DNA of 64,000 bases. It comes from Candidatus Omnitrophota bacterium (GTDB taxonomy: Bacteria > Omnitrophota > Gorgyraeia > Zapsychrales > Fredricksoniimonadaceae). The notes under the pieces are model-generated. The model saw only the letters and a list, made by a program, of their open reading frames with translations, was not told the origin of the DNA and searched no databases. The stretch spans positions 7,997 through 71,996 of the forward strand of contig JAYTXU010000063.1 of the NCBI GenBank assembly GCA_043742785.1, in the 5' to 3' direction. Below, one piece after another: positions 13,346-31,922 of this stretch; the stretch's first letter is position 1, and each line of letters opens with the position of its first letter. The translations under genes and the position numbers were made by a program.

Positions 13346-13621
13346 TCAATTCTTGATACCCAAGCGGTGCCCATCCAAGGTGAAAAAGTTGTAAAATCTT
13401 GTATAAAGTTGTATGACGTGTGGAAAGTTTTTGCTGTGTGGAATTTGGCTTAAAATGACCGTTTGTCGACGATAAGTACCAAAAATAGCCTAATGTATCC
13501 CAGCATCTCCACCAGCCAGATTGGCACAAATTAGGCACATAATTTTTCTATCTTCTATAAGTCAGGCTGGCTAAAGAGGTTATAAAGGTAGCCTGTGGGT
13601 TCTCTTACAGCAGACCTCCAG

Positions 13622-13710
13622 AATTAGATAGTGCTATTAAAGTGCCCCATAGTATGATCTTGGATATCTCCTTGACCGCAAATCACCACCTGTCAAAATA
13701 AGGTCTGTCT
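13622..13710 (+). repeat. Direct repeat copy A (~90 bp; perfect 26-nt core TAGATAGTGCTATTAAAGTGCCCCAT at 13625-13650)
   Basis: ~75% identical overall to copy B at 14668-14754; lies in a 625-bp non-coding gap. Confidence 0.7.
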
Positions 13711-13971
13711 TCATAAGTTCAGGCTCTCTTATCTGCTGTAGTTTTGGTAAAGTCAAGTCACTGACACCCCTTTTTAAATTATAAATAACAGGACTGTTAC
13801 AAAAGCCCCGTAATGTCTATTTTGGAAAGATTTATCTCTAAAGAGGGTAGTGACTATTAAAAGCTAAAAAAAATATGCTATACTCAAATTAAGGAACTTG
13901 ATTCATAGAATTATTTGAGTTTCTTGATTCTTTGAAAAAAGATGTTCTTGTAGCAAAAGTGGTGGCGCGCT

Positions 13972-14652
13972 ATGAACAAGATATTTTTGCCCTTGGTTCT
14001 GTGCCTATTCTTTCCGGCTTTGATCTGTAAGGCCGATATGTCGGCCTTTAATGAAACGCCTACTACTCATCTCCCGCCTGGAATCTTAAATAAACACAAT
14101 GTGCAGAATGTGCAAAATCTGGATGTCATTGAGCTGGAGAAGCTTACCATTGATCATATAGAAAAAAGAAGAATTTCGTTATCTATGGAGAGTATTACGG
14201 AAGATGCTGCTTTGAAGAGTCCTATTGCTGAGGATTTTAATTCGTTATCTGTTGGCAACAAACATGTTCATCGAAGATATGATGGTTTTCTCTCTTCAGT
14301 TTCTCCAGATTACAAGATTAATAGAAATTTTCTTTCACTCACCAAGGTTCCTAATGTTAACCATAAACAGGCGATCATGTTTGTATTTCTTATGAATAAT
14401 AACAGATATGAACGCAAGAGATCCAGTAGTGATATTAATACCATCTTGAAAGATAATCCACGCACCCGCATGCATGTGTTGTGGCCAGGATCTAAGAAAA
14501 TAAATTTGGAACAGAAGATTATTGCAGATGAATATCCTGTTGATATTTCTATCGCCAATAAAGAAGATGGATATGCGCAGGGAGAATGGAATCTTGTCCT
14601 ACCTAATAAGAAACCACGCGAAGTAAGAGTTTCTCTGTTGTGGTCATTTTAA
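13972..14652 (+). CDS. Hypothetical secreted protein (226 aa)
   Basis: N-terminal signal peptide MNKIFLPLVLCLFFPALICKA; no recognisable domain. Confidence 0.5.
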   Translation: MNKIFLPLVLCLFFPALICKADMSAFNETPTTHLPPGILNKHNVQNVQNLDVIELEKLTIDHIEKRRISLSMESITEDAALKSPIAEDFNSLSVGNKHVHRRYDGFLSSVSPDYKINRNFLSLTKVPNVNHKQAIMFVFLMNNNRYERKRSSSDINTILKDNPRTRMHVLWPGSKKINLEQKIIADEYPVDISIANKEDGYAQGEWNLVLPNKKPREVRVSLLWSF

Positions 14653-14667
14653 TTCGTCTTCAAAACA

Positions 14668-14754
14668 ATTTAGATAGTGCTATTAAAGTGCCCCATCATA
14701 TAATCTTAAATATATTCTTGTTCAGGAATCGGTGTCTGCTAGAATAAGGTCCAA
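14668..14754 (+). repeat. Direct repeat copy B (26-nt core at 14671-14696), forming the 5' leader of the 14757 gene
   Basis: See copy A; ends 2 nt before the ATG at 14757. Confidence 0.7.
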
Positions 14755-14756
14755 TC

Positions 14757-15308
14757 ATGGTTCAAACAGACTACACCGATAAAATCCTCCAATATATCCA
14801 AAAGAGCGGCCAAGCGCGGGTCGCATCGATGCTCCAAGATCTTAATATTCCACGTAGAAGGGTTTTCAAGATTCTCTCTCGGCAGATTAAATCAGGGATA
14901 ATTTTTAAGGAAGGGGTGCATCCGAATATTTATTATAAGGCAAGGGTGCTTCCATCTAAAGAGCCTGCAGTCATTTCTCGAACACCCATTTCGAAGAAGG
15001 CGAAGAGCGGTTCTTATGAAACAGAGTATTTGTGTCAAGAGCTGGAAGATGCCAGAAAAGCTCAAAGGGAAATGAAGGATGAAGTGACAAGGCTTTCTCA
15101 CGAACTTTATCTAAGTCATAATGAGCTTAGCTCTAAAGAAGTAGATATTAAATATAAAGAGGCTCAGATCCATTCCAAGGAAGAACAGATCAAGCGCATG
15201 ACTGACCGGGAAGATCAACGTTATGAAGAGAACAAAAGTCTGCGCAAAGATATTCAGGATTTGCAGATCAGATTAAGGGAAGAGCAGAGGCAGACAGGGA
15301 AGAAGTAA
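14757..15308 (+). CDS. Hypothetical protein, N-terminal winged-helix-like region plus C-terminal coiled coil
   Basis: N-terminus KILQYIQKSGQARVASMLQDLNIPRRRVFKILSRQIKSG resembles a wHTH; C-terminal 90 aa K/E/Q/R heptad-rich. Confidence 0.5.
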   Translation: MVQTDYTDKILQYIQKSGQARVASMLQDLNIPRRRVFKILSRQIKSGIIFKEGVHPNIYYKARVLPSKEPAVISRTPISKKAKSGSYETEYLCQELEDARKAQREMKDEVTRLSHELYLSHNELSSKEVDIKYKEAQIHSKEEQIKRMTDREDQRYEENKSLRKDIQDLQIRLREEQRQTGKK

Positions 15309-15333
15309 TTTTTATAAACTGAAAAGGAAACCT

Positions 15334-16185
15334 ATGAATACAAAGACTTTTTCTAAGAAAGAAGCTATTACCCGCGGAATACAGATGACTAAAAAGTATT
15401 TTGGGGTGATTTTAATTGTCATAGGTATTTATATTGCAATTGGGGTGAGCAATGGGCAATTACAAAGTGGGGCAGGATTAGATCGTATTAATAAAAGGGA
15501 TATTAAAACGCTTTATAAAGATTCTGCTGCTGTTGATGCGTTTAACCAATATCTTCAAACATCCGGATATATCAACAAATTCGGCAAAGTACAGGATAAG
15601 TTAGAGAAAATCGAAAAACCTTCTGATTTAGTTCTTCCATTGGAACTAGATGGGGATCGATATAAGATTTTTAGATTTCTACAAGCATATAAATACCATT
15701 TACCTTTTCCAAAAGCATTTTATTACGTATTACTTTTTGGTTTTGGTATTATTAATATGTTACTACAAATAGGTGCGACAAAAATGACCTTGATGGTCAA
15801 TCGTGATGAAGCACCGAATGTTTTTGAGATCTTTTCAAATGGTTCGCTTTTGATTACATATATTTTGTCGAGCATTTGTTATTCTTTAGCTGTTATAGGA
15901 GGAATGATTCTTTTGATTGTCCCTGGCATTATATTAAGTATTGCGCTTGGAATGAACATGTTCTTTATCGTTGATCAAAAGATGGGCCCCATTGAATCGC
16001 TGAAAGCGAGCCGTGCTCTCACAAAAGGTGTTCGGTGGCAATTGTTTTGTTTCGGAGGAGCTCTTCTTCTATTTAATTTGGCAGGTCTTTTATGTCTAGT
16101 GATAGGGTTACTTTTCACGATCCCTGTTTCTTGTGTTGCAACGGCATACGTCTATGATCATCTACGTAATCAAGTGGCTACTTAA
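15334..16185 (+). CDS. Hypothetical polytopic membrane protein (283 aa)
   Basis: SD AAAAGGAAA; about 6 hydrophobic helices. Confidence 0.5.
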   Translation: MNTKTFSKKEAITRGIQMTKKYFGVILIVIGIYIAIGVSNGQLQSGAGLDRINKRDIKTLYKDSAAVDAFNQYLQTSGYINKFGKVQDKLEKIEKPSDLVLPLELDGDRYKIFRFLQAYKYHLPFPKAFYYVLLFGFGIINMLLQIGATKMTLMVNRDEAPNVFEIFSNGSLLITYILSSICYSLAVIGGMILLIVPGIILSIALGMNMFFIVDQKMGPIESLKASRALTKGVRWQLFCFGGALLLFNLAGLLCLVIGLLFTIPVSCVATAYVYDHLRNQVAT

Positions 16186-16196
16186 TAGGAAAACAT

Positions 16197-16418
16197 ATGT
16201 CTAAACCACAACAATTGATTGAATGGAGTTATTTAGGGGCGAATTACAGTGTGTATATTAAGCATTTCACTGATGATGAGGGGAAGAGGGGAATGACCAT
16301 GATTTTTGAAGACACTACTAATGACAAAGTTACAGAAATGACTGTTCCTACTCGCAAGTTTCCCGAATTTCTAAGGGCTGTTAATGGGGGGGACGAACCT
16401 TATAGAGGATTATTTTAG
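16197..16418 (+). CDS. Small hypothetical protein (73 aa); an inactivated paralog lies at 19115-19261
   Basis: Soluble, ends ...VNGGDEPYRGLF; the degraded copy supports it as a genuine gene family. Confidence 0.5.
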   Translation: MSKPQQLIEWSYLGANYSVYIKHFTDDEGKRGMTMIFEDTTNDKVTEMTVPTRKFPEFLRAVNGGDEPYRGLF

Positions 16419-16464
16419 TTTGATTTTCAATTCATTCTTATTAAATTATGGTATAGTTTAGTTA

Positions 16465-16698
16465 ATGAGCGACCAAAACCAAAATAAAGAAGATAATTTT
16501 CTGCGAACCCTCCTCATATCGATTATTTGTATTCCTCTTATTATTTGGTTACTTTATAATGGTTATCAAAAAAGTCTGCAATCTTCTACTAAATCTATTG
16601 CTTGTGAAAAAAGATGTACTGATCAAGGCCATGCAGGTTATGAATTTAAATGGCCTATGTTCTCCGGTCCTAAATGCACCTGCATAGACATGAAATAA
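16465..16698 (+). CDS. Small membrane-anchored Cys-rich protein (77 aa)
   Basis: One TM helix (LLISIICIPLIIWLLY) then a 4-Cys tail CEKRC...GPKCTC. Confidence 0.4.
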   Translation: MSDQNQNKEDNFLRTLLISIICIPLIIWLLYNGYQKSLQSSTKSIACEKRCTDQGHAGYEFKWPMFSGPKCTCIDMK

Positions 16699-17867
16699 AT
16701 CTAAAAATTAAAGAAAAGTATAAAGTGAAGAAATCTATTTTTCTTATTCCGTTATTAATTCCTTTGCTTATTTTTGGTTTTAACAAAACTAACTTTAAGC
16801 CCTTATGGAATGATGAAATAAACACCCAAACAAAAACTTTAAATCAATCGTACAGTAATATTCTGCTTAGAAACCATGTCTTTGACGACAGTTTAGCTCC
16901 TCTTTTTTATATTCAGCAGAAGATTTTGTGTGATCTTTTTCGTTACCAAACACCTCAAGAATGGTTGAAGGGGGATTGGTCCTATAGAGATCGTTATTCC
17001 AATGTTTTCTTAAGGATTCTTCCTGTTTTTTGGATGTCGTTATCTTTTTTGTTGTTGTTTATTTATTTCTCTAATCGATTTAATCTCTTTATTGGATTCT
17101 TAAGTTTATTTATAGCTTTCTCCACTCACATTCTTCTAGCTTATTGGGCTGAGGCAAGGCCCTATGGCTTATGGGTGTTCTTTACGGTTGTTCAGCTGCT
17201 TCTTTTTATAGAATTAATTGAGGCTCCGGTTGTAGGGGCCAAGAAATGGGTTTGGCTTTCTATTATTCATATTGCTTTAAGCCTAACTTGCATCTTAAGT
17301 TTCTTTCAGATTACGATTGTTTCTATGATCCTTTTCTTATTTAAAGAACGTCGTTGGAATAGATATATATTTCTGTTAGCGGTTCCATTAATTTTTATTT
17401 ATTTCTACAAACCTTTTCTTCATAGTGTTACTTTTTTTTGTCAGGTTCGAGATATTTTTTATAGCATATTACCTAAAGAACGTATTAATATTTTTCAACT
17501 TTATCCTTTGTTGTTGGGATTGTATTTCTTGCAATCTAAGAAATTGATCTCTCCATTATTTCTGAATAGCACTCTGTTAAAGATTGCCCCTTTTTTTATA
17601 GCGTTATTTCTTATGGTATTTGCCGTTTTTATATTTTTAAGTTATTTATGGGGTCACGCTACAGGAGGAGTTCAGGTTGTTACGCCAAGGCATGTTATAT
17701 TTCTAGCGCCTCTTGAAGTTATTGCGGAGACTTATTTAATAGGCATTCTTTGGGAGAGTTTTAAACATCTTTTTTGGATGCGATTGTTGATTCTGGCTAT
17801 TATTACTTTTTTTTATTTTCCACCTTTTAATATATTTTCTTTTGGTTTTCTAGCTTTTGCCTCCTAA
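16674..17867 (+). CDS. Polytopic membrane protein, probable GT-C fold glycosyltransferase (PMT/ArnT-like); alternative GTG start at 16725
   Basis: ~11 TM helices; acidic DD motif in first extracytoplasmic loop (NHVFDDSLAPL); segment NVFLRILPVFWMSLSFLLLF resembles RIPALIFGMGGILFLW of the 56661 GT39-like protein. Confidence 0.4.
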   Translation: MHLHRHEINLKIKEKYKVKKSIFLIPLLIPLLIFGFNKTNFKPLWNDEINTQTKTLNQSYSNILLRNHVFDDSLAPLFYIQQKILCDLFRYQTPQEWLKGDWSYRDRYSNVFLRILPVFWMSLSFLLLFIYFSNRFNLFIGFLSLFIAFSTHILLAYWAEARPYGLWVFFTVVQLLLFIELIEAPVVGAKKWVWLSIIHIALSLTCILSFFQITIVSMILFLFKERRWNRYIFLLAVPLIFIYFYKPFLHSVTFFCQVRDIFYSILPKERINIFQLYPLLLGLYFLQSKKLISPLFLNSTLLKIAPFFIALFLMVFAVFIFLSYLWGHATGGVQVVTPRHVIFLAPLEVIAETYLIGILWESFKHLFWMRLLILAIITFFYFPPFNIFSFGFLAFAS

Positions 17868-17935
17868 TATAGAGGATAGGTGTTTTTATATTTCTGTTGA
17901 TGGTGCTGTGAGGTCTAGCCGCTTTAAAAGTGCGG

Positions 17936-17964: not shown

Positions 17965-17998
17965 ACAAATTTAGTTATTCAAGATAAGGGGACAATAT

Positions 17999-18937
17999 AT
18001 GAAGAAGGTAATCTTTTATTTCTTAGTTTTATTTATCAGTTTTCTTTCACCTTCTTTAGTAAAAGCAGTAGAAGAAGTTAAAACTATGAATGTAGCGAGT
18101 ACGGCCGAACAATTATTCTTTGTTACTGTAAGATTGGAATGCTCGCGTGTTGGTAAAGATGGGGCGATTGTAGGAGATGTTGGTACAGGTTTTATAGTAT
18201 CTTATAAGTGGCAGAATAAAGAAGGACTCTTTTTAGTTACAAATAAACATGTTTTAAAAGATGTAGAAAAAATTAAATTCTTTTTTATTCAAAGTGATGG
18301 AAAAAAGCCGATTTTAGGAAAGATACAACCTGTTGAAATGAATAATGTGAGATCTTTATGGTATGGACATCCTAACGACAAAGTAGACGTTGGAATAATC
18401 CCAATAAGTGAACTTCTCGATCAGGCTCAAAAAAAGAATTTGCAGTTATTTATCAGGTCTTTTAATAAAGATTTTTTACCAACGCCACAGCAAGCAGAAG
18501 ATTTAGATGCGGTTGAGGAGATTATGTTTGTAGGTTATCCAAGTGCAATTTACGATAAAGTGAATTATTTGCCAATACTTAGACGGGGGATTACTGCTAC
18601 ACCTCTGAATGTAGATTATGAAGGTTTGCCACAATTCTTAATTGATGCAACAGTATTTCCTGGTTCAAGTGGGAGCCCTGTCTTTTTGATGAACCGTGGT
18701 AGCTATTCTACTAAAGAAGGTGGTTTGGTTTCTGGTTCTCGCTTCTTTTTACTGGGATTAATTTCAGAGGTTTATGTGTTTAATCAAACTAATGTAGGGG
18801 GATTTACTGATATACCTTCAACTATCAAACCAGTTGTTGGAACATCTCAAATGATGGGACTCGGTAAAGTAATAAAATCATCAGCTATTTTTGAAACGAT
18901 AGAAACTTTCTTAAGGTTAAATGGTGAAATAAAATAA
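17999..18937 (+). CDS. Secreted trypsin-like (S1 family) serine peptidase
   Basis: Signal peptide; catalytic His context LVTNKHVL, Ser motif FPGSSGSPVFLM (GDSGGP-like), Asp in between. Confidence 0.7.
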   Translation: MKKVIFYFLVLFISFLSPSLVKAVEEVKTMNVASTAEQLFFVTVRLECSRVGKDGAIVGDVGTGFIVSYKWQNKEGLFLVTNKHVLKDVEKIKFFFIQSDGKKPILGKIQPVEMNNVRSLWYGHPNDKVDVGIIPISELLDQAQKKNLQLFIRSFNKDFLPTPQQAEDLDAVEEIMFVGYPSAIYDKVNYLPILRRGITATPLNVDYEGLPQFLIDATVFPGSSGSPVFLMNRGSYSTKEGGLVSGSRFFLLGLISEVYVFNQTNVGGFTDIPSTIKPVVGTSQMMGLGKVIKSSAIFETIETFLRLNGEIK

Positions 18938-18954: not shown

Positions 18955-18990
18955 GCCAGCTAGTGATTTGTTCATTGGCTGGTTTTTTTA
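18955..18990 (+). terminator. Possible rho-independent terminator (5-bp stem CCAGC/GCTGG, long loop, T7 tract)
   Basis: 18956-18960 pairs with 18978-18982, followed by TTTTTTT at 18983-18989; weak stem. Confidence 0.3.
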
Positions 18991-19028
18991 TCTTATGATT
19001 GATTGGTACTGGCAAATTGTCCTCTTAA

Positions 19029-19091
19029 ATTAAGAAGAAGATTGGTGAAAGTGTCAATATTGAAACTGATATTTTGGCGAAGCATATTTAA
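19029..19091 (+). pseudogene. Remnant of a second ribE 3' end (encodes ...KKIGESVNIETDILAKHI*)
   Basis: ~80% nt identity and near-identical translation to the ribE C-terminus at 10640-10702 (GDSVNIETDILAKYI); in-frame stop immediately upstream at 19026-19028. Confidence 0.55.
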
Positions 19092-19114
19092 AATAATTAA
19101 AAGTTAGAAACGTT

Positions 19115-19261
19115 ATGTCTAAACCACAATAACTCATTAAATGGAATTATTTAGGTTCGAACAATGAAAAAGTCACCGAAATGACTATTCCCTCCCGCAA
19201 ATTCTCCGAATTTATAAAGGTCGTCAATGGCGGCAGTGAAGCCTACCGCGGTTTATTTTAG
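19115..19261 (+). pseudogene. Inactivated paralog of the 16197-16418 small gene (CAA->TAA nonsense at codon 6 plus 75-nt in-frame internal deletion)
   Basis: MSKPQ*LIKWNYLGSNNEKVTEMTIPSRKFSEFIKVVNGGSEAYRGLF* vs MSKPQQLIEWSYLGANYS...KVTEMTVPTRKFPEFLRAVNGGDEPYRGLF*. Confidence 0.6.
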
Positions 19262-19438: not shown

Positions 19439-22400
19439 ATGACAAGAGGGAAGATATATAAAAAATCTATCGTTTGGTTAGTCTTAGTTGCATTCTTATT
19501 AAATACATTAATAGGAGCGCAGCCTGTACAAGCTGATGTTCCTTTCCTGCCTGCCCCTGGTCAATTAGTTCCATTAACAGCATCATTTTCTTCACCCATG
19601 ATTTGTGGCCTTAAATTCTTTAAGGACAATCCTTTTAAATTTAATTTTGTCATGACTCAAGGAGATCAAGCCTCTGGTGAAAACTCTTTTAATAGAAAAG
19701 TTTTCTTGAAAGAAGAAGCCAGTAGGCTTGTTAAATATTTCTTAGCTTCTTTAGCAATTCCTGAGAAAGACATGTGGGTTAACTTATCACCCTATGATTC
19801 TAATCGTATTATTCCACAAGAATTTGGAATTACGGAAATGGGAAAAGATATGTTAGCTCAAGATTATTTATTAAAGCAGGTAGCTTCTTCTGTGATGTAT
19901 CCGGAAGGAAGTGTGGGCAAGGAATTTTGGAGCAAGATTTACAGGGAAGCTTATAAACGTTTTGGAACAACTAATATTCCCGTTGCCGCCTTTAACAAGG
20001 TTTGGATTATTCCGGGTCAAGCAACTGTCTATGAGGATGCTATTGATAATACAGCGGTGATCACAGAGAGTAAGCTTAAGGTCATGCTTGAAGAAGACTA
20101 TCTGGCGCTTAGTAAATCAACCATTAAGGATCATATAGAAAAAAGCTCAGATGCTAATAGACAATTATCTAATGAATTAATTCGTGAGATAATTCTTCCT
20201 TTGATTGAGAAAGAGGTTAATGAGGGGAAGAATTTTGCAACATTGAGGCAAGTTTATAACTCGTTAATTTTGGCATTTTGGTTTAAAAATAAATTAAAGG
20301 AAGGGTTATTAGCAAAAGGATATTTTGGTCAGAAGAAAGTCAATGGCGTTGATGTAAATGATAAGAATATTGACCAGGAGATCTATAAGCAGTATTTAAA
20401 ATCTTATAAAAAAGGCGTTTATAACTATATCAAAGAGGAATTAACTCCTACCAATGAAGTGGTCCCAAGAAAATATTTTTCTGGAGGGGTTATCTTTGGA
20501 GATTATATCGAAAAAAGTTTTGCAATGATTTCTGGAAAAGAAGCTGCAAAGGCTGCTAGTGCCGTCTTACAGAATGGGGTTGTTACCTTTGAGGCGGGGG
20601 TTGAAGCAATTGTAGGAGATAAAACTAGATTAGAGTCATCAACTATTGGAGGGTTAAGAGAAAGTGGGCTAGTTCAAGATGGCGATACTGTTATAAGAAT
20701 TAAACTTAATGGAGTACAGAAATATAACGAAAAAGTAAGAAAATCTCTGATAGAAAGAATTATCGTTCTTAAGAAGGTATTTGGTTTGTATGTTAGACCA
20801 TTTAAAAGAATACTGCCTGCAATCACAGTGGGAGTTTTTCTTTTGGCGGCTGCTAATTCAGCTTCTGCTAAGGGCTCTGAAGATTTAATGCAGCACGGTT
20901 CTAAGAAAGCAGAAATCAAACAGGTGGTCGCAAGCTCTATCGATATTCAAATACAAAAGCTTAGTGAGAAAATAGGTGCTGATCAAAATGCAGTGGACAA
21001 TATGAGTGCTAAAGGCGGAACCTTAATGATGAATTTTGATAAGGTCCAAAAGCTCAAAGCACAAATCAAGATAGAAAAAGAACAATTGAAAGAGATTCAG
21101 GGAGCAAAGCCTAAGGGTTCTGTTGCTCCTCAAGAGATTTTACCAGTAAAAAATGTGCAGCCAGTTTCAGTAGATACTCATATGGGGTCTGTATCCATAG
21201 CTACCCCAAGCTCTGTAGATGTTCCTGGCTCGGTAGTTCCAACAGTAGTGGTTCCTGTGGATCATGATTCCAATTTAAATGTTCAACCTCAAAGAACTGC
21301 GCCAACAACTACAGTTGCAACGATTACACCGACTTCCACAGGCGATACTCCTGGACTTATTAAAGCACCTGGTAATCAAATTCAGCCCAAGGTTCTTTCA
21401 GGGGATGCTCTTGATCACAATAATCTTTTACCTGATCAGGGAGCGGCACCTACTATTGATACTCAGCACGGCGCAGCCGCAGGGCCTGGAGCGCCGCCAC
21501 CGGATCAACTAGATCAAGGGCTTAATTTAAATACTCAAGTTTCAGGAGCGCCGCCAGCAGCTGTTCAAGTCGCAACAGTTACATCGGGGATTTCAACAGG
21601 GAGTACTAATATGTATTCATCCCAATTGGATGAAGAAGCAGCGGTTAAGCAAGCTAATCTTTTAGAAGAACAAGTATTGTTAAGCCAGCTTCAGAAATCT
21701 TCTGCAGATCAGGATGCTTTAAAGTTAAAAATAGCTGAAGATATGCAGTTGATTCAAAATTATCATCTAGCACTTCCTAATTACAAACCAGTTCCTTTGC
21801 CATACCAAAAAGCGGGGATGACGCCGCCCATTGCTTCCTTTACTCCGGATAATGTCAGCATTGCCTTGCTGGATTATAAGATTAATCAGACATTAAGAAC
21901 AATCAAGAAGCCTATTAAGAATAATCCCTTTGCTCATGGTGCTTTATCGATGAATAATAATGCGCCTTTTGCAAGCGTGCCGGTTGTATCGGTTGGGGTT
22001 GGAACAAGTTTTAGCATTGTCCCTGATGTGCCTTTTGCTGGTTTGATTAATTTGACCCAAATAGTTGGAGGGCTTCCTCAACTTGGTCAGCAAGGCGTTA
22101 TGAGTCAGGTGTTGGGGCCTGCAGTGGCTGTTGATATTCTAGCTAATTTAAGAAATTATGTGGTAATGCATCCGACCAAGGGACAGGATGTTCGTTATGA
22201 TGCACGTATGACTCCATTTAAAGGGGTTGTTGAATCACTAACAGTGCATGTGACTCCAGCTGTTTCTTTTGACCAAGAAGGGCATCGAGTTGAAAAGAAT
22301 CTTTATCGTGTAGGGATTGTTAAAACCTTAGGTGCCGTAGCAGGAAAGGTGGATTCCCTTTTAGGAGATAAAGGACTCTTTGGGCATAGCAGCGATCACT

Positions 22401-25400: not shown

Positions 25401-28400
25401 AAGATGTTTACAAGCCGGTTACCGGGGGGAAACCAGTTTTGCTTTACAGTGACCGATTCTTACAAAACAATCGCATTTATTTTAAAGATGGCCATGAGTA
25501 TTATTCCGTTTTAATTGATGCTTCCCATAAGGATGGGCAAACCGTGACGATTGACGGACAGACGACAGAGAATGTGACAGGAATCTTTGATTTTAATAAG
25601 GACTCCAATAGCGGGTATCACGTCAATCTTCGTAATCTGGATAAGAATGGCGGTTTTGCTCCTATTCGTTTTACAAAATTCAAGGATGGACAGATTAATG
25701 TTGATCAAACAGGATTTGTTAAGATTCGACAAGGAATGGATCGCAAAGCTATTTTAGATAATGTTGTTAGATCGTCTGTTCTTAATATGACAGACGTATA
25801 CAGATATAGACCAGATGGACAAATTGATACAAGAGAAGTTAGTTTTTTAAATAATGGACAATGGCAATTAAATTGGACTTTAAAAGGAGCTGATATTGCT
25901 GTTCAACCTGTCCTGGTTAGTCAATTATCTAGCAATCAAGTGATTGCAGAGGCTTTTGCTAAATATAAGATTGATAAAGATACCATCTTAATTGAAACCA
26001 TCAAAACAGATACCGATGGTGTTGTCAGTAAGGATTATCGTATCTTAGGAGATATCTTAGAGAAGAAAATCATTTCTGTGATCGAGCAGGGTGGGGGAGT
26101 CATCAAGACTATTGTGGGGTTAAATTTTGACAACACCACAGGCGAGCAGATACTGTCCTATACCTTAAGTTCTGATGGGCAGGTTCAATCTTTAAGTAGA
26201 ACGGTTCCCAATGAATTATCCTATCAGCAGCTTCTTCCTCAAGGAGTCGAGACAACCTATGCACAGTTTATGGAGAAACATTTAAATGTTCAGGGAGCTA
26301 ATTATTGGAATGAGTTGGAACAAAGAGGTGTCTCAAGAAGTTTTGTACCAGTGGTGGTTGAAGAAATTCCTTTTCTGGTTCAAACAGATAAACCTGGTGC
26401 TAATAGTTTTAAATCTATTGAACCCAAGATACGTCCTCTCGTTGAAGCTTATACAAAGGCCAGTGCTCAAGACCGTCCTGCTCTATTAAAACAAATTTCA
26501 GATACCGTTCGCCAGTATCATCAAGAGAGTAATACTGCGCATTATACGCAAGAGCAAGGGCAGCCGACCTATCATTATTTATCACCTCCTAATGATAGTC
26601 GAGGACGTGATTATATTACCAAGACAAGCGATGGGGATATTTCGCTCAATATTTGGCCACTTGAAGGTAAGGGAAATTTTCCAGCTAATATTTTGCCGGC
26701 TAGTATTGTTGTTAATCAGTCGACTGGCGAATTGCAGAGAACAATGGTTTTTGATCATCATGAAAAGCTACAGTTTCAGAATTTCCAAAATGAGCCCTAT
26801 GAACTGGGCGTGAATGTTTATAAGGTTTCGGATGATTTAAGTTTAAAGGAGGCTACATTTACGAGTTTAGGAGATCCCATTTCTAAAACCACTCTTTATC
26901 AGCGTAATCGTGTTGCTAATGGAATATTTGGTGTACAGACAAGAGGGGAAGAAACAATTGCTTTTGATCCGTTATTCCCGTACTCGCTTCCTTTGGCTGG
27001 GACCTTAGATGAAGATGGTCGTTTGACTAAGGCAACTTTGCATTTGGAATTTAGTGTTGAGAATGGGCATCAGAAAATTGTGGAAACATCCTTGGTCAAT
27101 GAGCCAACAGCTCCAGGGGATTTTAGAGTTAAAACGCAGACCATTGTGGATGGTAAGCCAATTTCTGGGACTCTGCATGAAGAAGGAACACTTTTGGGTT
27201 ATAGGAAAAGCATGGAGGCTAATTGGAAAGTATTTGCCGTTTATCCTGCTTTAATCTTAGGGTTAATTATCAGCGGAGATTTACTTAAGAAAATTAGGTT
27301 TAATAGAATTAAAAAGGCATTGGCTGAGGAGGCTACTAATGCAGCCTTAGAAGAAACATCAGAGCCTCCTAAAGAAAGAGAAATTGTTTATCCTTCTTGG
27401 CAGGAGTATGGATTTAGTAAAGGTGCTTTGGCCGTTGCTGCTAGAAGATACGAAGGAACAATTGTTCCCATGTTAAAGAAAGAATCAATAGAGGATGTTT
27501 TAAAAGAATATTTCCGTGGTTATCAAATATGGCGTAAACAGGTCATGGGTATTGAAGAGCCATTTATCCCCACTATTGAAGATTTATGGGTGATGTTTTT
27601 AAGAGATGCGGATAATGATATTTTGAATGCAGATGTGCCAGACGGCCTTAATTATTTGATGCATAAAGCTGTGGAAGCTAGAAAGATTAACCCAGTGGCT
27701 GCAGATATAGGGGGTTTTATAAGAAAGGAATACACGCGCTGGCATAATATTATTGAAATTCAGCAAACAACCTTTCAGGGTTTATCAGGGGGGAAGATGA
27801 AAAACGTGGTCCCCTATGATTATTATTTTACCGTCGAAGATCTTAATGAAATGTTTCGTACTAGGAAGAATGTTGAATGGTACGATGATTTAGGGTATTC
27901 CTTGGATCGTAAAGCAGATAGAAGAAGCTCTATCTACAATGATTTTATAGCCAGTTTGAGGGAAAAGGTTAAGGCTGCTAAAGCAGGAATTGAAGCCATG
28001 GCTGATAGTGTGGGTGGCAATGTATTTAGAATGAAGAGAAAGGTGGCAGATGTTGCAGAGTATCAGGAGTATGTTCAATTTTTTACTAGAGTTCAAAAAG
28101 GTGAGTATACCGTATCAGATAATTTTACCTCCACAGAAATATCTGCAGAACAAGCTAATCTTTTAATTAATAACAAACCATTTATTAGAAAAACATTTGC
28201 GGAATCAGGATCATGGGTTGGGAAAATGCCTTTGCCGTTGCGTATGATCAAACCATTAGCCCAGTTTATCCGAAATAGTTATAACCAGTTAACCTATCCA
28301 ATTATATTAACTTCGACCGTGGGAGCTTATGTGGCAGCTTATGACGGCATCATAGGCTGGGGGACTGCTACCCTTGCGGCAGCTATTAGTCTTGTTGTTA

Positions 28401-31400
28401 TTAAAGGAATTTATTATCCATTAAGTTATTTATTAGACCGCAAGGTTAATGTTAAAAGTTTTGGAAAGCCAACTGATTTCGGGGCTGGTTATAAGAAAGA
28501 AAAATTAACGAGTGCTCAGAAATGGTATCGAACAGGTTTTTGGGCATCCGTGATATCGGCTAAGGTAGCCTGGGATATTTTCCTTATTCATCATTTTCTT
28601 ATTCCTCATCAGGAAACAATCGGCGCAAGTTATTATCCGGTCATTTTTGGTCATGAAATCCCCGTTAATATGAATTTATTATTGATGGGAATGCAGTGGT
28701 CAACGAGCGCTCTATTTCTTTATGTCAGTAATTTTGCGGCTAATTATTTGGTTAAACCATTTTTTACTTATATTCATGGTTCCTTAAGAGGATTAGGAAC
28801 AATTAAAGAATCTAAGCAAATTCTCGCCCTTCAAAAAGAAGGTATTTTGGATCGTTTGATTGAACAGAAGCTTCTTGTCAAAGGAGGAGCTGGATTAACG
28901 GATGAACAGCGCCTTGCTGCCAGAAGAGCTATTATCAAGTTAGCCTTTGATCAGCATCGTTATGTCAGAGACGAAGTCAGCGATGAGGAATACAAAATAG
29001 CGATTGAGGAAGGACGATTAGACCATATTAAGATTGAAGATGTTCAAAAAAGTGTCACTCAATCGGTGAATGCCTTACTGATGGAAATGCCGCGTATGCC
29101 TCATCCGGAAGACAATACACCAATCACAGTCTTGAGCCCTGTGTTTGGGGAAGATATTATTTATGCCTATAACAACAGTGTTCTTCCAACAACCTTGGAT
29201 ATGATGCTTAACACCGGCTATACAAATCTTAATTTTATTATTTCAAAAGCCCCGCAGCGTTGGAAGAATCTTATTGAACGTGTCAGAAGAGATAAGATAG
29301 GGACAGAAGAAGAATGGCTACGCATGGAAGCTTTATTGGATCAAAATGGATTGCTGGGAGAAATCAGTGAAGATTTAAAAATGCAGATTCGTCTTTGGGC
29401 TTCCTATGAAGGGCAGCCCTTTGCACGCACATTAGATGGACTTATGAATATTGTCAGATGGCATAAGCTTTATTTAAAGCTTTCTTTTCCAACCTGGAGT
29501 GAAGAACAGATTCGAGAGAGGACCAATTATGATGTCCAAATCCTTTGGGCTTATCAGATTTGGGGAGATGTTTTAAATGCAACTGATGCAAAACCAGAGC
29601 TGCAGTTAAAGAAAAAAGACACCCTTTATTTATTAAAGAAATACTACGATGAATTAGGGTATTTAGTTGAGATTGCCTCTTTACAGATTAGAAACGGAGT
29701 CAGTGTCAAGGTCTTGTCTCGATATAATCCAACAACAGAGCAAATTGAGGATATTGCAGATATTCCCAACACTGAGAATAAAGCTATCACACTTGAAGGA
29801 AAACCATCCAATCAAATGCACGCCCAAACCTTTGCTAGAAACAAGTTTCGATTTACTATTGATATGAATCAGGATTTAGACCCGCTTGAAGCGATGAAAA
29901 TTCCTATTATCATTCAAGAGTTTAAAAATAAGAATGTGGCTCTTGTGAATACTCCAGAAATGATTTTTACAGGCAGTTTTACGAAGACCGGTATGTTCCA
30001 TGCAATTTCTGATCGTACCTTTGTTACTTCTGATAAAAGACATATGGGGATTAACACTTCAGCTTCTCATCATGGCCATCCAGATGTGGGGACAGATGTC
30101 TATGATATGGAAGATGGCGGTCTTTCCTCGACTGTTGCTGTTTCTGAGGATTACAAGCGCGGTATTCGATATATGTTAAGAGGAAGAACTATTTTAAACA
30201 GAGAATATATGCAGTGGAAAAAAGCAAGAGAGCTTTCCTGGACAGGAACAGATGGTATTTGGCGCAAATTTTCTATGGGGGCAGCCCAGCTTCTGCTTGG
30301 TCGTTATGCCCACTGGATGAATAAATCCTTTGGACCGGTGGCTGGAGCTGGAGAATTTTATTCGGGGCCTCATTTTTATACTTTAAATACGATTGCAGCT
30401 CTTGGATTTTTTGTGTATACCCTTAATGTCATGATTGGAGGAATTAGTCCATTTACAGCATTTCCAGCGCCCGCTGTAACGACAATTACGAGTGTTTTTT
30501 GGATAGGGCAGGCGCTTACGGTTATTGGATTCACGCAGATGGCCTTGGAATCTGGATTTAAGAAAGCTTTTACTACATTTGCTAAAATAATGCCTTTTAT
30601 GGCGCCTTTTTATATTGCTCATATTTTCACCTATCAGGCAGGGCTTCTCTCTGGGCTGGCTGGTCTGGCTGCTTATGTTGTAACCGGACGCGGATTTAAT
30701 AGAGAGAATTTTGAAGTGGATAAATTATTAAAAGTATATTCTAAATCTCACGTTGCTATTGGGGTGATTGGTCTTACTCTTTCAGGCCTTGCTTATTCTA
30801 TATGGAGAAATGAAACATTTTTATTATCTTCGGTGACTGTGCTTTCCTTTCTTTTTCCTGCGGTGATACCTTTTATTATGAATCCAGGAAATTATCCCAT
30901 TTATGGGGTCACGGTTAGAAGATCCGCAGAACTCTTTAAAAAGAATTCCAGCAGCAGTGTAAAATCTTTAAAGAAAACTATTTGGGATGAAGGATTGGCT
31001 CAAGGAAATATTCGAAAGGCTTTAGTAGATGGTATTCCGGAAGCTGTTTCATTTGGAGTTTGGTTTGGTATCACAGCTCCTGTGGCTCTTCCTGGCTTAG
31101 TAATCAATAAGATTAAAGGTGCGCCAGAATATCCTGGACAAGTTCAAGCAGTTGTTGAAACAAAAGAGGAAGATAAAGCCATGCTGACAGCGCAGCCTAA
31201 AGAAGAGGCTACTTCTGGTGGTATTGATCTTTCTAAGACAACTGTCAATGTTGTTTCTCTCAGAGGGTCTATTCAAATAGCCTTTGATGATTCCGATATG
31301 TTGCATTTGTTGTTGAACGCGGATGGTCTTGCCCCTATAATTTATGATATTAAAATGATGACACCAGCCATGGCTGATCATTTCGTAGGTCTGGATTATT

Positions 31401-31402
31401 GA
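19439..31402 (+). CDS. Giant multidomain protein (3,987 aa): signal peptide, long extracytoplasmic region with clan GH-A glycosidase domain, C-terminal FKS1/callose-synthase-like (GT48) glucan synthase module
   Basis: Uninterrupted 11,964-nt ORF; N-terminal signal-like MTRGKIYKKSIVWLVLVAFLLNTLIGAQPVQA; GH motifs GNELN (E at 24224-26) and VAETG (E at 24515-17); GT48 motif block HHGHPD...GG...SED.......LRG.....EY.Q..K.R.L (30068-30232) and TGRGF (30683-30697); TM clusters at ~aa 2600, 2950-3100, 3620-3870. Confidence 0.85.
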   Translation: MTRGKIYKKSIVWLVLVAFLLNTLIGAQPVQADVPFLPAPGQLVPLTASFSSPMICGLKFFKDNPFKFNFVMTQGDQASGENSFNRKVFLKEEASRLVKYFLASLAIPEKDMWVNLSPYDSNRIIPQEFGITEMGKDMLAQDYLLKQVASSVMYPEGSVGKEFWSKIYREAYKRFGTTNIPVAAFNKVWIIPGQATVYEDAIDNTAVITESKLKVMLEEDYLALSKSTIKDHIEKSSDANRQLSNELIREIILPLIEKEVNEGKNFATLRQVYNSLILAFWFKNKLKEGLLAKGYFGQKKVNGVDVNDKNIDQEIYKQYLKSYKKGVYNYIKEELTPTNEVVPRKYFSGGVIFGDYIEKSFAMISGKEAAKAASAVLQNGVVTFEAGVEAIVGDKTRLESSTIGGLRESGLVQDGDTVIRIKLNGVQKYNEKVRKSLIERIIVLKKVFGLYVRPFKRILPAITVGVFLLAAANSASAKGSEDLMQHGSKKAEIKQVVASSIDIQIQKLSEKIGADQNAVDNMSAKGGTLMMNFDKVQKLKAQIKIEKEQLKEIQGAKPKGSVAPQEILPVKNVQPVSVDTHMGSVSIATPSSVDVPGSVVPTVVVPVDHDSNLNVQPQRTAPTTTVATITPTSTGDTPGLIKAPGNQIQPKVLSGDALDHNNLLPDQGAAPTIDTQHGAAAGPGAPPPDQLDQGLNLNTQVSGAPPAAVQVATVTSGISTGSTNMYSSQLDEEAAVKQANLLEEQVLLSQLQKSSADQDALKLKIAEDMQLIQNYHLALPNYKPVPLPYQKAGMTPPIASFTPDNVSIALLDYKINQTLRTIKKPIKNNPFAHGALSMNNNAPFASVPVVSVGVGTSFSIVPDVPFAGLINLTQIVGGLPQLGQQGVMSQVLGPAVAVDILANLRNYVVMHPTKGQDVRYDARMTPFKGVVESLTVHVTPAVSFDQEGHRVEKNLYRVGIVKTLGAVAGKVDSLLGDKGLFGHSSDHFIFQNLGYQIKVDDYHQAFTYQAAVNQDTNTSYINAYNIEDSTTRYRENTHHGWDLVDSSTPLDSHLDYYSATVHGFILHADSTTGTMTGQGDVFTSSTFITDAFAKQIAQQDGQTIVGRSYLSTNSVLVEPISSLKDLNLEKQLSKGVDKNGHLIWGVLRNHLGHIVKLIIDPRELNDTSSLTDDSGNSVRFIPGKAYKASSTTGEIGSTIRDYTIDEFRIVGEVKGMFKKNTVADKYGHYDLSERPQLPELPSELKSLVSGNGLILESSVSLKAIYQTARNYYGVVYFADGRVPAVLTGLKNVKTIGSLDEKNGVTRLPNGLYTLSRFKKNLDGNALVLLDGKKQVIAVVDASDKLKQERIKNLHGENKRIDDHKVTLTTLKDGGIEAEDHRVLDPESGKPQFTIFTKGNTFTPEQTAFNAANPQQIHLERELADLAIKGQAITIPVEGSNRQRWIILEKAPTSQLKRLEQSSQQVAPVRNIKVETLTGPDGKVFHGVTIDTEMFGADDIQKLNSLGATAVRTYYPISKKLAVLLATQTQVKTIIVGIPLNSKAYNPENLSNFWGDTVGDPDERVSLENSSKYISYLKQLAATLDGNAKIVVDLGNELNLHPDWIGVTNNGSDLGRFFRKVDKHATDIKAVLGDSVTTSFTLGDNPIDFVTALTNAPNVQYWGVNSYRGIDGLENDWMKATKEAGVFRPFYVAETGNNSNAGEAVQAEADVHAWKTAEGKMGVSVLLMTLQDNPKKMANNKQENFGLYDQYGKPKAGVRKITEAWGEAATSTTAPILFDDTLTGVNEHYALVRLRSNHPAGTTAEEVVKQLKTERVRVSDLDRLAPALGKLGVEILKIDSQGNTVGRYVKMFGDGYQLWENVSIEANMNKYFQINRNDGKGSEYVSLDDLKSPSTQEAIRQVADEVTMMDMNQHVMARVFLNKNFNGSRIEVLQDNHTSSIFELASFSPTDLSGPVAKTVSINPKDSKDGFLHVITTDLRQVNQGVQVEDVYKPVTGGKPVLLYSDRFLQNNRIYFKDGHEYYSVLIDASHKDGQTVTIDGQTTENVTGIFDFNKDSNSGYHVNLRNLDKNGGFAPIRFTKFKDGQINVDQTGFVKIRQGMDRKAILDNVVRSSVLNMTDVYRYRPDGQIDTREVSFLNNGQWQLNWTLKGADIAVQPVLVSQLSSNQVIAEAFAKYKIDKDTILIETIKTDTDGVVSKDYRILGDILEKKIISVIEQGGGVIKTIVGLNFDNTTGEQILSYTLSSDGQVQSLSRTVPNELSYQQLLPQGVETTYAQFMEKHLNVQGANYWNELEQRGVSRSFVPVVVEEIPFLVQTDKPGANSFKSIEPKIRPLVEAYTKASAQDRPALLKQISDTVRQYHQESNTAHYTQEQGQPTYHYLSPPNDSRGRDYITKTSDGDISLNIWPLEGKGNFPANILPASIVVNQSTGELQRTMVFDHHEKLQFQNFQNEPYELGVNVYKVSDDLSLKEATFTSLGDPISKTTLYQRNRVANGIFGVQTRGEETIAFDPLFPYSLPLAGTLDEDGRLTKATLHLEFSVENGHQKIVETSLVNEPTAPGDFRVKTQTIVDGKPISGTLHEEGTLLGYRKSMEANWKVFAVYPALILGLIISGDLLKKIRFNRIKKALAEEATNAALEETSEPPKEREIVYPSWQEYGFSKGALAVAARRYEGTIVPMLKKESIEDVLKEYFRGYQIWRKQVMGIEEPFIPTIEDLWVMFLRDADNDILNADVPDGLNYLMHKAVEARKINPVAADIGGFIRKEYTRWHNIIEIQQTTFQGLSGGKMKNVVPYDYYFTVEDLNEMFRTRKNVEWYDDLGYSLDRKADRRSSIYNDFIASLREKVKAAKAGIEAMADSVGGNVFRMKRKVADVAEYQEYVQFFTRVQKGEYTVSDNFTSTEISAEQANLLINNKPFIRKTFAESGSWVGKMPLPLRMIKPLAQFIRNSYNQLTYPIILTSTVGAYVAAYDGIIGWGTATLAAAISLVVIKGIYYPLSYLLDRKVNVKSFGKPTDFGAGYKKEKLTSAQKWYRTGFWASVISAKVAWDIFLIHHFLIPHQETIGASYYPVIFGHEIPVNMNLLLMGMQWSTSALFLYVSNFAANYLVKPFFTYIHGSLRGLGTIKESKQILALQKEGILDRLIEQKLLVKGGAGLTDEQRLAARRAIIKLAFDQHRYVRDEVSDEEYKIAIEEGRLDHIKIEDVQKSVTQSVNALLMEMPRMPHPEDNTPITVLSPVFGEDIIYAYNNSVLPTTLDMMLNTGYTNLNFIISKAPQRWKNLIERVRRDKIGTEEEWLRMEALLDQNGLLGEISEDLKMQIRLWASYEGQPFARTLDGLMNIVRWHKLYLKLSFPTWSEEQIRERTNYDVQILWAYQIWGDVLNATDAKPELQLKKKDTLYLLKKYYDELGYLVEIASLQIRNGVSVKVLSRYNPTTEQIEDIADIPNTENKAITLEGKPSNQMHAQTFARNKFRFTIDMNQDLDPLEAMKIPIIIQEFKNKNVALVNTPEMIFTGSFTKTGMFHAISDRTFVTSDKRHMGINTSASHHGHPDVGTDVYDMEDGGLSSTVAVSEDYKRGIRYMLRGRTILNREYMQWKKARELSWTGTDGIWRKFSMGAAQLLLGRYAHWMNKSFGPVAGAGEFYSGPHFYTLNTIAALGFFVYTLNVMIGGISPFTAFPAPAVTTITSVFWIGQALTVIGFTQMALESGFKKAFTTFAKIMPFMAPFYIAHIFTYQAGLLSGLAGLAAYVVTGRGFNRENFEVDKLLKVYSKSHVAIGVIGLTLSGLAYSIWRNETFLLSSVTVLSFLFPAVIPFIMNPGNYPIYGVTVRRSAELFKKNSSSSVKSLKKTIWDEGLAQGNIRKALVDGIPEAVSFGVWFGITAPVALPGLVINKIKGAPEYPGQVQAVVETKEEDKAMLTAQPKEEATSGGIDLSKTTVNVVSLRGSIQIAFDDSDMLHLLLNADGLAPIIYDIKMMTPAMADHFVGLDY
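23843..24745 (+). other. Domain within giant protein: clan GH-A (beta/alpha)8 retaining glycoside hydrolase-like (GH5/GH17/GH72/GH128-type motifs)
   Basis: beta1 HGVTID; GATAVRTYY; acid/base-like VVDLGNELNLH; nucleophile-like FYVAETGNN ~97 residues later. Confidence 0.55.
27230..31399 (+). other. Module within giant protein: FKS1-like (GT48) beta-1,3-glucan synthase (TM1, cytoplasmic N-domain, ~5 TMs, catalytic domain, C-terminal TM bundle)
   Basis: Motif-by-motif match to fungal Fks1 with identical spacings for HPD-9-GG, ED-8-LRG, LRG-5-EY and EY.Q..K.R.L, with TGRGF ~170 aa downstream; NP-containing helix in the C-terminal TM bundle. Confidence 0.7.
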
Positions 31403-31423
31403 TTTTAAACGACGGAGGATTAC

Positions 31424-31705
31424 ATGAAAATAAAATTAAGAAAAATATCTACAAAATCGTTTATTCTAATTTTTTCCAGCATAAATGTCATTGCTGGTTT
31501 TATTTTAGGTGCTGTCGTAACGATAGGTTCATTAATCGTTCCTTCTGAACCAGGTTCTGGGCCTGGAGCATGGTCTATTTTAGTTTTTCCTATTCTCAAT
31601 GGTATTTTAGGCTTAGCAGGGGCTTTATTTCTTTCTGGAATGTATAATGTACTTGCTAAATATTTAGGTGGGATTGAATTAGAGTTTGAGACTTTAGAAG
31701 GTTAG
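31424..31705 (+). CDS. Small 2-TM membrane protein (93 aa) immediately downstream of the giant gene
   Basis: Starts 22 nt after the giant-gene stop; two hydrophobic helices separated by PSEPGSGPGA; followed by a terminator. Confidence 0.5.
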   Translation: MKIKLRKISTKSFILIFSSINVIAGFILGAVVTIGSLIVPSEPGSGPGAWSILVFPILNGILGLAGALFLSGMYNVLAKYLGGIELEFETLEG

Positions 31706-31733
31706 AATATTCATATCTAGATATTGAGTTTAT

Positions 31734-31768
31734 AAATAGCCGCATAAGGGATAAGCGGCTATTTTATT
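31734..31768 (+). terminator. Rho-independent terminator (8-bp stem ATAGCCGC/GCGGCTAT, 11-nt loop, TTTATTTA tail)
   Basis: Perfect inverted repeat 31734-31741 / 31753-31760 followed by a T-rich run. Confidence 0.65.
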
Positions 31769-31922
31769 TAGTGGATCTTTTAGGGACTCATTGACGGATA
31801 TTAGGGCTGATGTTAGAATACGCGATTCAATTGACACAATTTGGACACACAGCACAAATTGTAGAGTTATAAGAAGATTAAAAATGTTGGAAGTTGTTTT
31901 AAATGTATTATTTATTAATTTA

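Follow-up and report, generated by a model that had tools for sequence, protein, structure and literature searches.

A variable interval between ribE and tRNA-Pro in a Candidatus Omnitrophota genome and its giant, predicted GT48 glucan synthase

Outside the lineage described here, the known synthases of family GT48 are those of eukaryotic cell walls: FKS in fungi and callose synthase in plants. In the NdvB-type cyclic beta-1,3-glucan synthases of Bradyrhizobium and Pseudomonas, a GT2 synthase is fused to a GH17 transglycosylase. Giant membrane proteins have been published from Omnitrophota (West-Roberts et al., bioRxiv 10.1101/2023.11.21.568195; bioRxiv 10.64898/2026.06.07.730766), and tRNA-associated genomic islands are a fourth system with which the present locus was compared. 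The DNA analysed was a stretch of 64,000 nt from a Candidatus Omnitrophota bacterium (assembly GCA_043742785.1, contig JAYTXU010000063.1, positions 7,997 to 71,996 of the forward strand), termed the window. Its subject is the interval between the riboflavin synthase gene ribE and a tRNA-Pro gene, where a giant protein with a predicted GT48 synthase and a predicted glycoside hydrolase (GH) domain is encoded just ahead of a 93-amino acid (aa) protein, tm93. An initial annotation, made from the sequence alone, had described the genes from 13346 to tRNA-Pro as a candidate accessory island built around the giant gene. The nine open reading frames (ORFs) and the tRNA-Pro gene that it had placed were confirmed in position, and the genes did lack housekeeping assignments: NCBIfam gave no name to any block gene, and Pfam gave a weak TrmB, a near-threshold DUF975, Trypsin_2 and Glucan_synthase, and nothing else.

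Extent and origin of the variable interval

The explanation considered probable, short of firm, is that the block, a composite filling, occupies a synteny breakpoint and was assembled from mostly clade-native genes in at least two rearrangement or recombination events, without delivery by a mobile element. Labels of the type L001 denote loci in other genomes or assemblies, and those of the type P0001 homologues of the giant protein. The landmarks of the region in the window were:

6062-10702, left flank: rib operon, ribBA-ribH-nusB-PHP-ribD-ribE
10118..10702, + strand: ribE, final gene of the rib operon and left anchor of the conserved synteny (NCBIfam riboflavin synthase, E 5e-67)
10964..13345, + strand: four-gene lipoprotein operon (CsgG-family, 319 aa; PEGA-like, 102 aa; DUF4810, 120 aa; GNA1162-like, 245 aa)
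18955..18993, + strand: strong intrinsic-terminator-like hairpin with a 12-bp stem and a T-run, closing the small-gene unit
19026..19261, + strand: recombination scar, in which a 36-nt spacer separates a ribE 3' end from a pseudogene of p73, the 73-aa gene
19439..31402, + strand: gene of the giant 3987-aa protein
31424..31705, + strand: tm93, 21 nt beyond the giant gene, for a 93-aa protein that has two hydrophobic segments
31738..31770, + strand: hairpin AATAGCCGC...GCGGCTATT followed by TTTATTT, the likely terminator of the giant-tm93 unit
31923..31996, + strand: tRNA-Pro(CGG), right anchor, at which homology with L003 restarts exactly
32015..32284, + strand: acylphosphatase gene acyP (NCBIfam acylphosphatase, E 5e-19), followed by ligA; conserved right flank, in the same order in L003 and L006

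The rib operon was syntenic in L002-L006, L092 and L093, and the closest RibE matches were Candidatus Omnitrophota metagenome-assembled genomes (MAGs; 54-76% identity). L003 was collinear with the window over the six rib-operon genes and eight right-flank genes (62-84% aa identity), and in it tRNA-Pro(CGG), acyP and ligA followed 469 nt after ribE with no gene between. Relative to L003, the window held 21.2 kb of extra DNA (10703-31922), lipoprotein operon included, after which the right flank ran in the order tRNA-Pro, acylphosphatase, ligA, a 174-aa gene, xerD, cca, rbfA, nrnA, truB, ribF, mraZ, rsmH and the dcw cluster. The interval was missing or replaced after ribE in all seven relatives, and the six besides L003 held six different contents, among them:

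L006: fabF-fabG-fabZ, then tRNA-Pro
L002: a different giant gene (at least 3,275 aa; AAA_5, WD40)
L005: a FabA-like gene, then a 946-aa receiver-domain protein
L093: a FabA-like gene, then an SMC-like gene
L004: aminoacyl-tRNA synthetase, PPDK and sigma-70 genes, and others

Across the clade, synteny breaks at the junction 3' of ribE. The variable interval extends over 10703-31922, with the CsgG-type lipoprotein operon inside it; the island edge had been set at 13346, but the lipoprotein operon is equally absent from L003 and the left edge is therefore at 10703. The operon was absent after ribE in 7/7 relatives examined. The initial annotation had allowed that the block would be core, not accessory, if it were syntenic throughout the lineage. 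Compared at ribE/tRNA-Pro, it was not conserved in synteny in the seven relatives, and with no conserved block at the junction a lineage-wide core block was not what was found. Of the proposed accessory island, the variable interval without synteny across relatives stood, and its discreteness and mobility did not.

The scar gave the second line of evidence. Remnants reported at 19029-19261 were real, and were identified as the 3' end of ribE and a p73 pseudogene. Positions 19026-19082 held the degenerate last ~18 codons of ribE with the stop (KKIGESVNIETDILAKHI and then the stop, vs. resident KKAGDSVNIETDILAKYI...), and positions 19117-19261 a p73 copy disabled by a stop at codon 6 and by a 72-nt deletion. 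The pseudogene retained the family-consensus IPS and GGSEAY, where the resident p73 has the derived VPT and GGDEPY; a recent copy of the resident p73 was rejected as its source, as residues that the resident gene has lost were kept.

Two units would make up the interval. Unit A (10964-18993) would comprise the CsgG-type lipoprotein operon and seven small genes, with the strong terminator at its end, and unit B (19026-31770) would begin with the scar. To judge by the scar, the giant gene and tm93 may have come from, or belonged to, an arrangement ribE-p73-giant-tm93-tRNA-Pro. A gene with the N-terminal domain of the giant protein (N-domain, described below) lies close behind ribE in L002 and L005, which fits a ribE-giant arrangement in the clade. 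The recombination that joined them to the end of unit A would have been homologous at the tRNA-Pro/ligA end and illegitimate at the left end, and the redundant ribE fragment and p73 copy would have decayed afterwards. So read, the scar (ribE' and p73') would record the re-joining of a 12-kb gene into the chromosome without mobile-element machinery.

Searches for mobility agreed with this. No ORF of 10703-31922 gave a Pfam, NCBIfam or PHROG match to an integrase, transposase, relaxase or phage gene. The xerD gene at 34796 was rejected as an island integrase, being the housekeeping copy found in the same place in L003. The block was located 5' (upstream) of tRNA-Pro, no partial tRNA-Pro copy was present in the window, and no att-like repeat was found between the edges (longest repeat, 11 nt), so that the island-like mobility suggested initially was not borne out. 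The composition of the interval is host-like (GC 0.33-0.41 inside vs. 0.32-0.41 outside; tetranucleotide Pearson r ≥ 0.93 throughout), and the contrast in GC and tetranucleotides with the flanks that an island might have displayed was not seen.

Several observations weigh against the composite filling. The order of events and the mechanism rest on a single scar, and an old local duplication followed by decay would look similar. The relatives are distant (RibE 54-76%), and variability was shown between genera or families, not strains. A metagenome scan with RibE gave nothing closer than 73% identity, the only closer contigs being 100% identical to the window, and the block did not differ among three samples of the strain. 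Inside the interval, tetranucleotide distance to the flanks was slightly increased (0.0152 vs. 0.0124; sd 0.0017) and GC skew was lower there, which leaves room for some foreign input. The protease encoded at 17999..18937 belongs to a family typical of mobile defence loci.

The giant protein and its partner gene

The giant-tm93 module is the interesting object of the region. In order along the protein, the giant was laid out as follows:

aa 10-28: signal peptide
aa ~33-352: Omnitrophota N-domain
aa 454-476: second hydrophobic segment
between this segment and the GH domain: P/T/Q-rich linker and beta-rich regions
aa ~1470-1800: clan GH-A domain (predicted)
aa 2594-2616: transmembrane (TM) segment
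after this segment: FKS-like cytosolic and TM regions
aa ~3200-3640: GT48 catalytic region (predicted)
C-terminal end: TMs and conserved tail

The C-terminus is predicted to be a GT48 (FKS1-like) synthase that keeps most catalytic residues. It matched Pfam Glucan_synthase PF02364 (E 1e-39; 136.7 bits, cut-off 37.2; aa 3203-3820) and the FKS1 and GSC2 chains of the PDB (E 9e-16 to 2e-13). Among the 15 FKS1 active-site residues named in PMC10499315, as compared through a HMMER alignment, 11 were identical in the giant (E851, K1082, D1102, N1104, E1155, H1195, E1221, D1222, K1246, R1248 and K1261) and two were conservative (D1080E and E1173D).

By its profile matches, aa ~1470-1800 would be a GH158/GH17-like domain of clan GH-A, and the GH assignment of the initial annotation was borne out in this respect. 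The best matches were endo-beta-1,3-glucanases of GH158 (9oro, 3.5e-7; 6pal, 7e-6), then GH2 TIM barrels, then GH17 (6fcg, 4e-4); because of the GH158 and GH17 matches, the nearest families appear to be ones that act on beta-1,3-glucan. N1595-E1596 and E1693 were invariant in six homologous GH domains (the giant, P0004, P0005, P0006, P0017 and P0028), in keeping with the (beta/alpha)8 domains of clan GH-A, where the acid/base Glu belongs to an NE motif and the nucleophile Glu follows some 100 residues further on. The PDB matches spanned just part of the domain, and no Pfam GH model passed on it (DUF5722 only, E 0.002). A single TM with a C-flank of +3 to +6 preceded the FKS-like part in 6/6 full-length giants, and because of this positive flank the N-terminal ~2,590 aa are predicted to be exported, outside the cytoplasm.

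The GT48 module could then use UDP-glucose at the cytoplasmic face to polymerise beta-1,3-glucan and pass the polymer through its own TM channel, and the extracytoplasmic GH158/GH17-like domain, as a retaining enzyme, could act on the growing chain in the periplasm or at the surface by trimming, branching or transfer. One polypeptide would unite a glucan synthase with a glucan-active hydrolase, a testable idea for some large Omnitrophota surface proteins. If the enzyme is active, ultra-small, host-dependent bacteria would make and tailor a surface beta-1,3-glucan, in the form of a sheath, a tether or a periplasmic glucan; a role in attachment is conceivable.

Four points tell against this account of the giant. 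Two of the 15 FKS1 residues were replaced (K1172S and N1220S). To our knowledge, no bacterial GT48 has been biochemically characterised, and the linkage specificity of a glucan is not readable from sequence. The segment at aa 454-476 (window 20798-20866) lies right after the N-domain and resembles an internal signal peptide (RPFKR, h-region, ANSASA|KG). It does not fit a simple alternating-TM topology, and were it membrane-spanning, the GH domain would lie in the cytoplasm. A like segment was present in 4/6 giants (the giant itself, P0004, P0005 and P0006), and not in P0007 and P0017.

The giant appears to be a member of a rare, unnamed and mostly Omnitrophota lineage of GT48. With the C-terminal 1,288 aa as the query, a word-indexed search of 5.8 billion proteins gave only two homologues. 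An exhaustive search of 1.84 billion cluster representatives gave 632 matches, of which the top ~33 were large proteins, and the giant-type homologues among these representatives numbered a few dozen. Homologues of the giant showed 31-51% identity over up to ~2,600 aa. Top matches with an organism name were mostly Omnitrophota MAGs, plus two bins of the Patescibacteria group, and the names on the bacterial (MAG) members looked up were 'hypothetical protein' and, once, 'FAD-dependent oxidoreductase'. Labelled eukaryotic GT48s began at about E 1e-58, and in a crude neighbour-joining tree the labelled bacterial sequences fell outside the clade with the labelled eukaryotes. The two Omnitrophota giant-gene preprints, searched for the terms 'GT48' and 'glucan', do not mention a glucan synthase. 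It is tentatively suggested, at rather less than even confidence, that Omnitrophota own an old and diverse GT48 lineage, carried in giant exported proteins alongside a remodelling domain of GH158/GH17-like type and an N-terminal module specific to the lineage. If true, this bears on the origin of eukaryotic GT48, whether from a bacterial source or by ancient transfer in the other direction.

The ~320-aa N-domain (window 19439-20500, giant aa 1-352) starts in the manner of a signal peptide and carries the motifs WVNLSPYEKDRIIP, LAQDYLLKQ, FNKVWI, EKEVNEG.NFA.LRQ and PRKYFSGG. It opens many large Omnitrophota proteins (L002, from 10749; L003, from 15458; L005, from 8182; three genes of L084; two genes of L086). 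The remainders of these proteins are unrelated to one another (GT48, SNF2-related, faint RelA/SpoT, receiver domain (REC), AAA_5 with WD40), and several are of cytoplasmic type (SNF2, faint RelA/SpoT, REC, AAA_5). The N-domain had no Pfam match, and a six-sequence model of it was poor (pLDDT 56) and found no Foldseek match (best E 0.41). It may be an uncharacterised export, anchoring or sensing domain common to many large Omnitrophota proteins.

Homologues of the giant were placed in five contexts (P0002 in L001, P0004 in L082-83, P0005 in L084, P0006 in L085 and P0007 in L086), with the short P0001 contig as a sixth. Their neighbours were unrelated to one another and to those in the window, with the exception of a 2-TM gene. 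A gene of 91-95 aa with two TMs stood directly downstream of the three closest homologues (P0001, P0002 and P0004); the tm93-type gene was 62% identical in L001 and 47% in L082/L083, and a 92-aa ORF followed P0001. Only the giant and tm93 would thus behave as a functional module, in which tm93 may be an accessory subunit. The island had been described as a polysaccharide or attachment system built around the giant; the five homologues in unrelated contexts, with only the ~93-aa gene conserved, did not uphold this.

Two observations on these genes stand apart. The end of tm93 (...YLGGIELEFETLEG) and the start of the conserved tail of the giant (aa ~3920-3987; ...SGGIDLSKTTVNV...) have a common GGI(D/E)L motif, which might mark an interaction or a common short domain. 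The L001 contig, with P0002, has many housekeeping genes split (polA, rho, glgA, prfA), which suggests a long-read assembly rich in frameshifts; P0002 is for this reason regarded as part of a broken giant ORF, and its length of 1,365 aa as an artefact.

Small genes of the interval and other explanations

The remaining features of the interval, all upstream of the scar, were:

13346..13971: non-coding gap of 626 bp between lp245 and sec226, with an orphan copy of the leader of the 183-aa gene
13972..14652, + strand: 226-aa protein (sec226) with an N-terminal signal peptide
14670..14754, + strand: leader element, second repeat copy, abutting the start codon of the 183-aa gene
14757..15308, + strand: 183-aa protein with a weak winged-helix N-terminus and a charged coiled-coil C-terminus
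15334..16185, + strand: 283-aa DUF975/UPF0259-like integral membrane protein
16197..16418, + strand: p73, a 73-aa protein strongly conserved in the Omnitrophota clade
16465..16698, + strand: 77-aa peptide with one TM and five Cys (four of them C-terminal), overlapping the next gene by 25 nt
16674..17867, + strand: 397-aa membrane glycosyltransferase with a predicted GT-C fold
17999..18937, + strand: 312-aa trypsin-like serine protease of the PDC-S45 family

The lipoprotein operon was supported by Pfam (CsgG, 3e-28; DUF4810, 6e-21; GNA1162-like, 6e-41), and L089 held the orthologous operon as a unit (55-71% aa identity), 5 kb upstream of a p73 orthologue. The 226-aa protein had no family match, and no homologue in any fetched locus besides the identical strain. 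The 183-aa protein matched Pfam TrmB below threshold (E 0.002) and an ATG16-like coiled coil (E 0.004). The 283-aa protein reached 2e-7 with Pfam DUF975 (31.5 bits vs. a cut-off of 34.8), and an identical protein has a precomputed DUF975 match. For p73, 21 clusters were found at 70-88% identity, and both clusters with an organism name were Omnitrophota. The contexts of its orthologues differed: ~7 kb from the giant homologue P0004 in L082, and beside CbiM and hydrogenase genes in L089. An S24-peptidase and IMS (UmuD/UmuC-like) gene pair was observed between p73 and the giant homologue in L082 (5917-7565), and again between the CsgG operon and p73 in L089 (5020-6711); it was absent from the interval of the window. 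The pair in L082 and L089 hints at a reshuffled common ancestral neighbourhood.

The 397-aa protein is modelled with a GT-C membrane fold (AlphaFold pLDDT 85, pTM 0.87), in line with its first description as GT-C-like. The top 30 Foldseek matches of the model in the PDB were all GT-C enzymes (AglB/STT3, Pmt4, AftA, ArnT, ALG9), with probabilities of 0.6-1.0 (0.99-1.00 for most of the top 20) and a best TMq of 0.63, to Pmt4; one homologue of the protein matched PF11028. D47-E48, directly after TM1, was near-invariant in an alignment of 13 GT-C homologues. By analogy with PMT and ArnT, which have an acidic catalytic motif, D47-E48 may be that of the first extracytoplasmic loop. Orthologues of the GT-C gene (50% and 44% identity) occurred in the MAGs of L002 and L004 at another locus, in the common context nuo-ParA-sucCD-DLH-VTT-HAMP/HD, and no homologue of the 77-aa peptide was present beside the GT-C orthologues in L172 and L173.

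The protease matched PADLOC PDC-S45 (E 1.8e-90; 300.9 bits; profile positions 7-284 of 293), phrog_7688 (4.5e-67) and Pfam Trypsin_2 (8e-8), and carried a 25-aa N-terminal hydrophobic signal or anchor beyond the PDC-S45 profile. PDC-S45 is a candidate family only, of single-gene phage defence (PMC12429752). The link of the protease to phage was limited to a 28%-identical partial match in Shigella phage SfII, with none in viral contigs.

The gap with a duplicated leader, noted initially at the left edge, was real, with a different layout: the gap (626 bp) and a leader copy in it were present, but the second copy lay outside the gap, at the start of the 183-aa gene. An element of ~85 nt at 13621-13708 recurred at 14670-14754 (51-nt core 86% identical, blastn E 2e-11; ~80% identity over ~85 nt), and the other repeat within the gap was merely a ~20-nt imperfect match. 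Two independent assemblies of the same strain (L087 and L088) both ended at 13626, as expected because of the repeat there. In an Rfam search over 10.6-32.4 kb the tRNA was the sole match, and the leader repeat matched no known RNA family. The terminator expected near 31.7 kb was found as the hairpin and T-run at 31738-31770, which was read directly from the sequence; the terminator scan missed it (11-nt loop). A promoter scan was at chance (33 found vs. 32.7 expected) and was not used. Intergenic gaps were -25 to 131 nt from the 183-aa gene through the protease, and the giant was preceded by a gap of 501 nt.

A core, vertically inherited region that looks odd because it is unannotated, and that was lost in the relatives examined, was judged unlikely. 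The host-like composition, the identity among three samples of the strain and the clade-wide homologues of p73, the GT-C gene, the CsgG operon and the giant all agree with it. It requires, however, that seven relatives, whose contents all differ, lost or replaced the region independently at this one junction, and the ribE'-p73' scar shows DNA that was gained or re-joined, not just lost.

A dedicated, co-regulated surface-glycan or attachment system, with the winged-helix regulator, GT-C enzyme, protease and CsgG-like lipoproteins acting together with the giant, was judged quite improbable. All its genes are on one strand, as almost all are across the window, where GC skew was positive throughout. 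Three products are predicted glycan enzymes (GT-C, clan GH-A and GT48), p73 lies near P0004 in L082, and an operon for CsgG-type outer-membrane lipoproteins adjoins. The small genes other than tm93, however, did not accompany the giant in L001, L082-L086 or the P0001 contig, and the GT-C orthologues are located elsewhere in two relatives. The strong terminator, the 501-nt gap and the dead gene fragments divide the units. In L082, the PMT_2, trypsin-PDZ and 307-aa genes were considered as orthologues of the GT-C, protease and DUF975 genes and rejected, as no orthology was found. The co-localised genes could not be upheld as one system, with GT-C orthologues elsewhere, a protease of family PDC-S45, and a terminator and scar between the units.

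A 59-nt exact duplicate of the 3' part of tRNA-Pro(CGG) was observed in L006, 370 nt downstream (13168-13243 and 13612-13676). The two copies bracket a 101-aa GIY-YIG ORF, the att-like pattern that marks a small insertion into the 3' end of a tRNA gene; no duplication of this type was found in the window. The least likely explanation is a true mobile island integrated at tRNA-Pro, with the giant and accessory genes as cargo and its mobility genes since lost: the block adjoins tRNA-Pro, is absent from L003, has scars and duplicated leader sequences and holds a protease of a family found in defence loci and prophages (PMC12429752), and L006 indicates that the tRNA can serve as an insertion site, but the absence of mobility genes, edge repeats over 11 nt and a partial tRNA copy, the position 5' of the tRNA, the host-like GC and tetranucleotides and the orthologues of block genes scattered through the chromosomes of relatives all oppose it.

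The composite filling of a breakpoint is accordingly preferred. As an 'island' the block is ordinary: gene order is poorly conserved in the phylum, and this is a further variable junction of that kind. Annotation as a mobile element or a glycan operon is to be avoided.

Comparison with known systems

The block resembles tRNA-associated genomic islands in that it adjoins a tRNA gene, is absent from a relative and holds unannotated cargo and gene fragments. It differs from them in being 5' of the tRNA and in having no integrase, direct repeats or compositional contrast.

The giant shares with the published Omnitrophota giant membrane proteins the phylum, a very long ORF, a signal peptide and TM helices, and also a mostly extracellular predicted layout, carbohydrate-related domains and an N-terminal region without a database match. 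It differs in size (3,987 aa vs. >30,000 aa) and in having no SecA_DEAD, dockerin or C39/S8 domains.

Like the NdvB-type enzymes, the giant would combine a processive beta-glucan synthase and a clan GH-A chain-remodelling domain in one membrane polypeptide. Unlike them, its synthase belongs by sequence to GT48 and not GT2, its GH domain is nearest to GH158 and secondarily to GH17, the protein is several times larger, and no cyclic product is inferable for it.

The closest likeness in the synthase itself is to FKS1/GSC2 and the plant callose synthases (CAZy GT48). With FKS1, the C-terminal ~1,390 aa align from the N-terminal cytosolic region of FKS1 through the TM bundle, GT-A catalytic domain and C-terminal TMs. 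The DAN-type motif (here DMN), the ED motif and TGRGF are kept. Unlike FKS1, the giant is bacterial, has ~2,590 aa of predicted exported sequence with a GH domain in front, is of low identity to FKS1 (E 1e-15), shows no evident Rho1-type regulator and has a conserved 2-TM partner gene.

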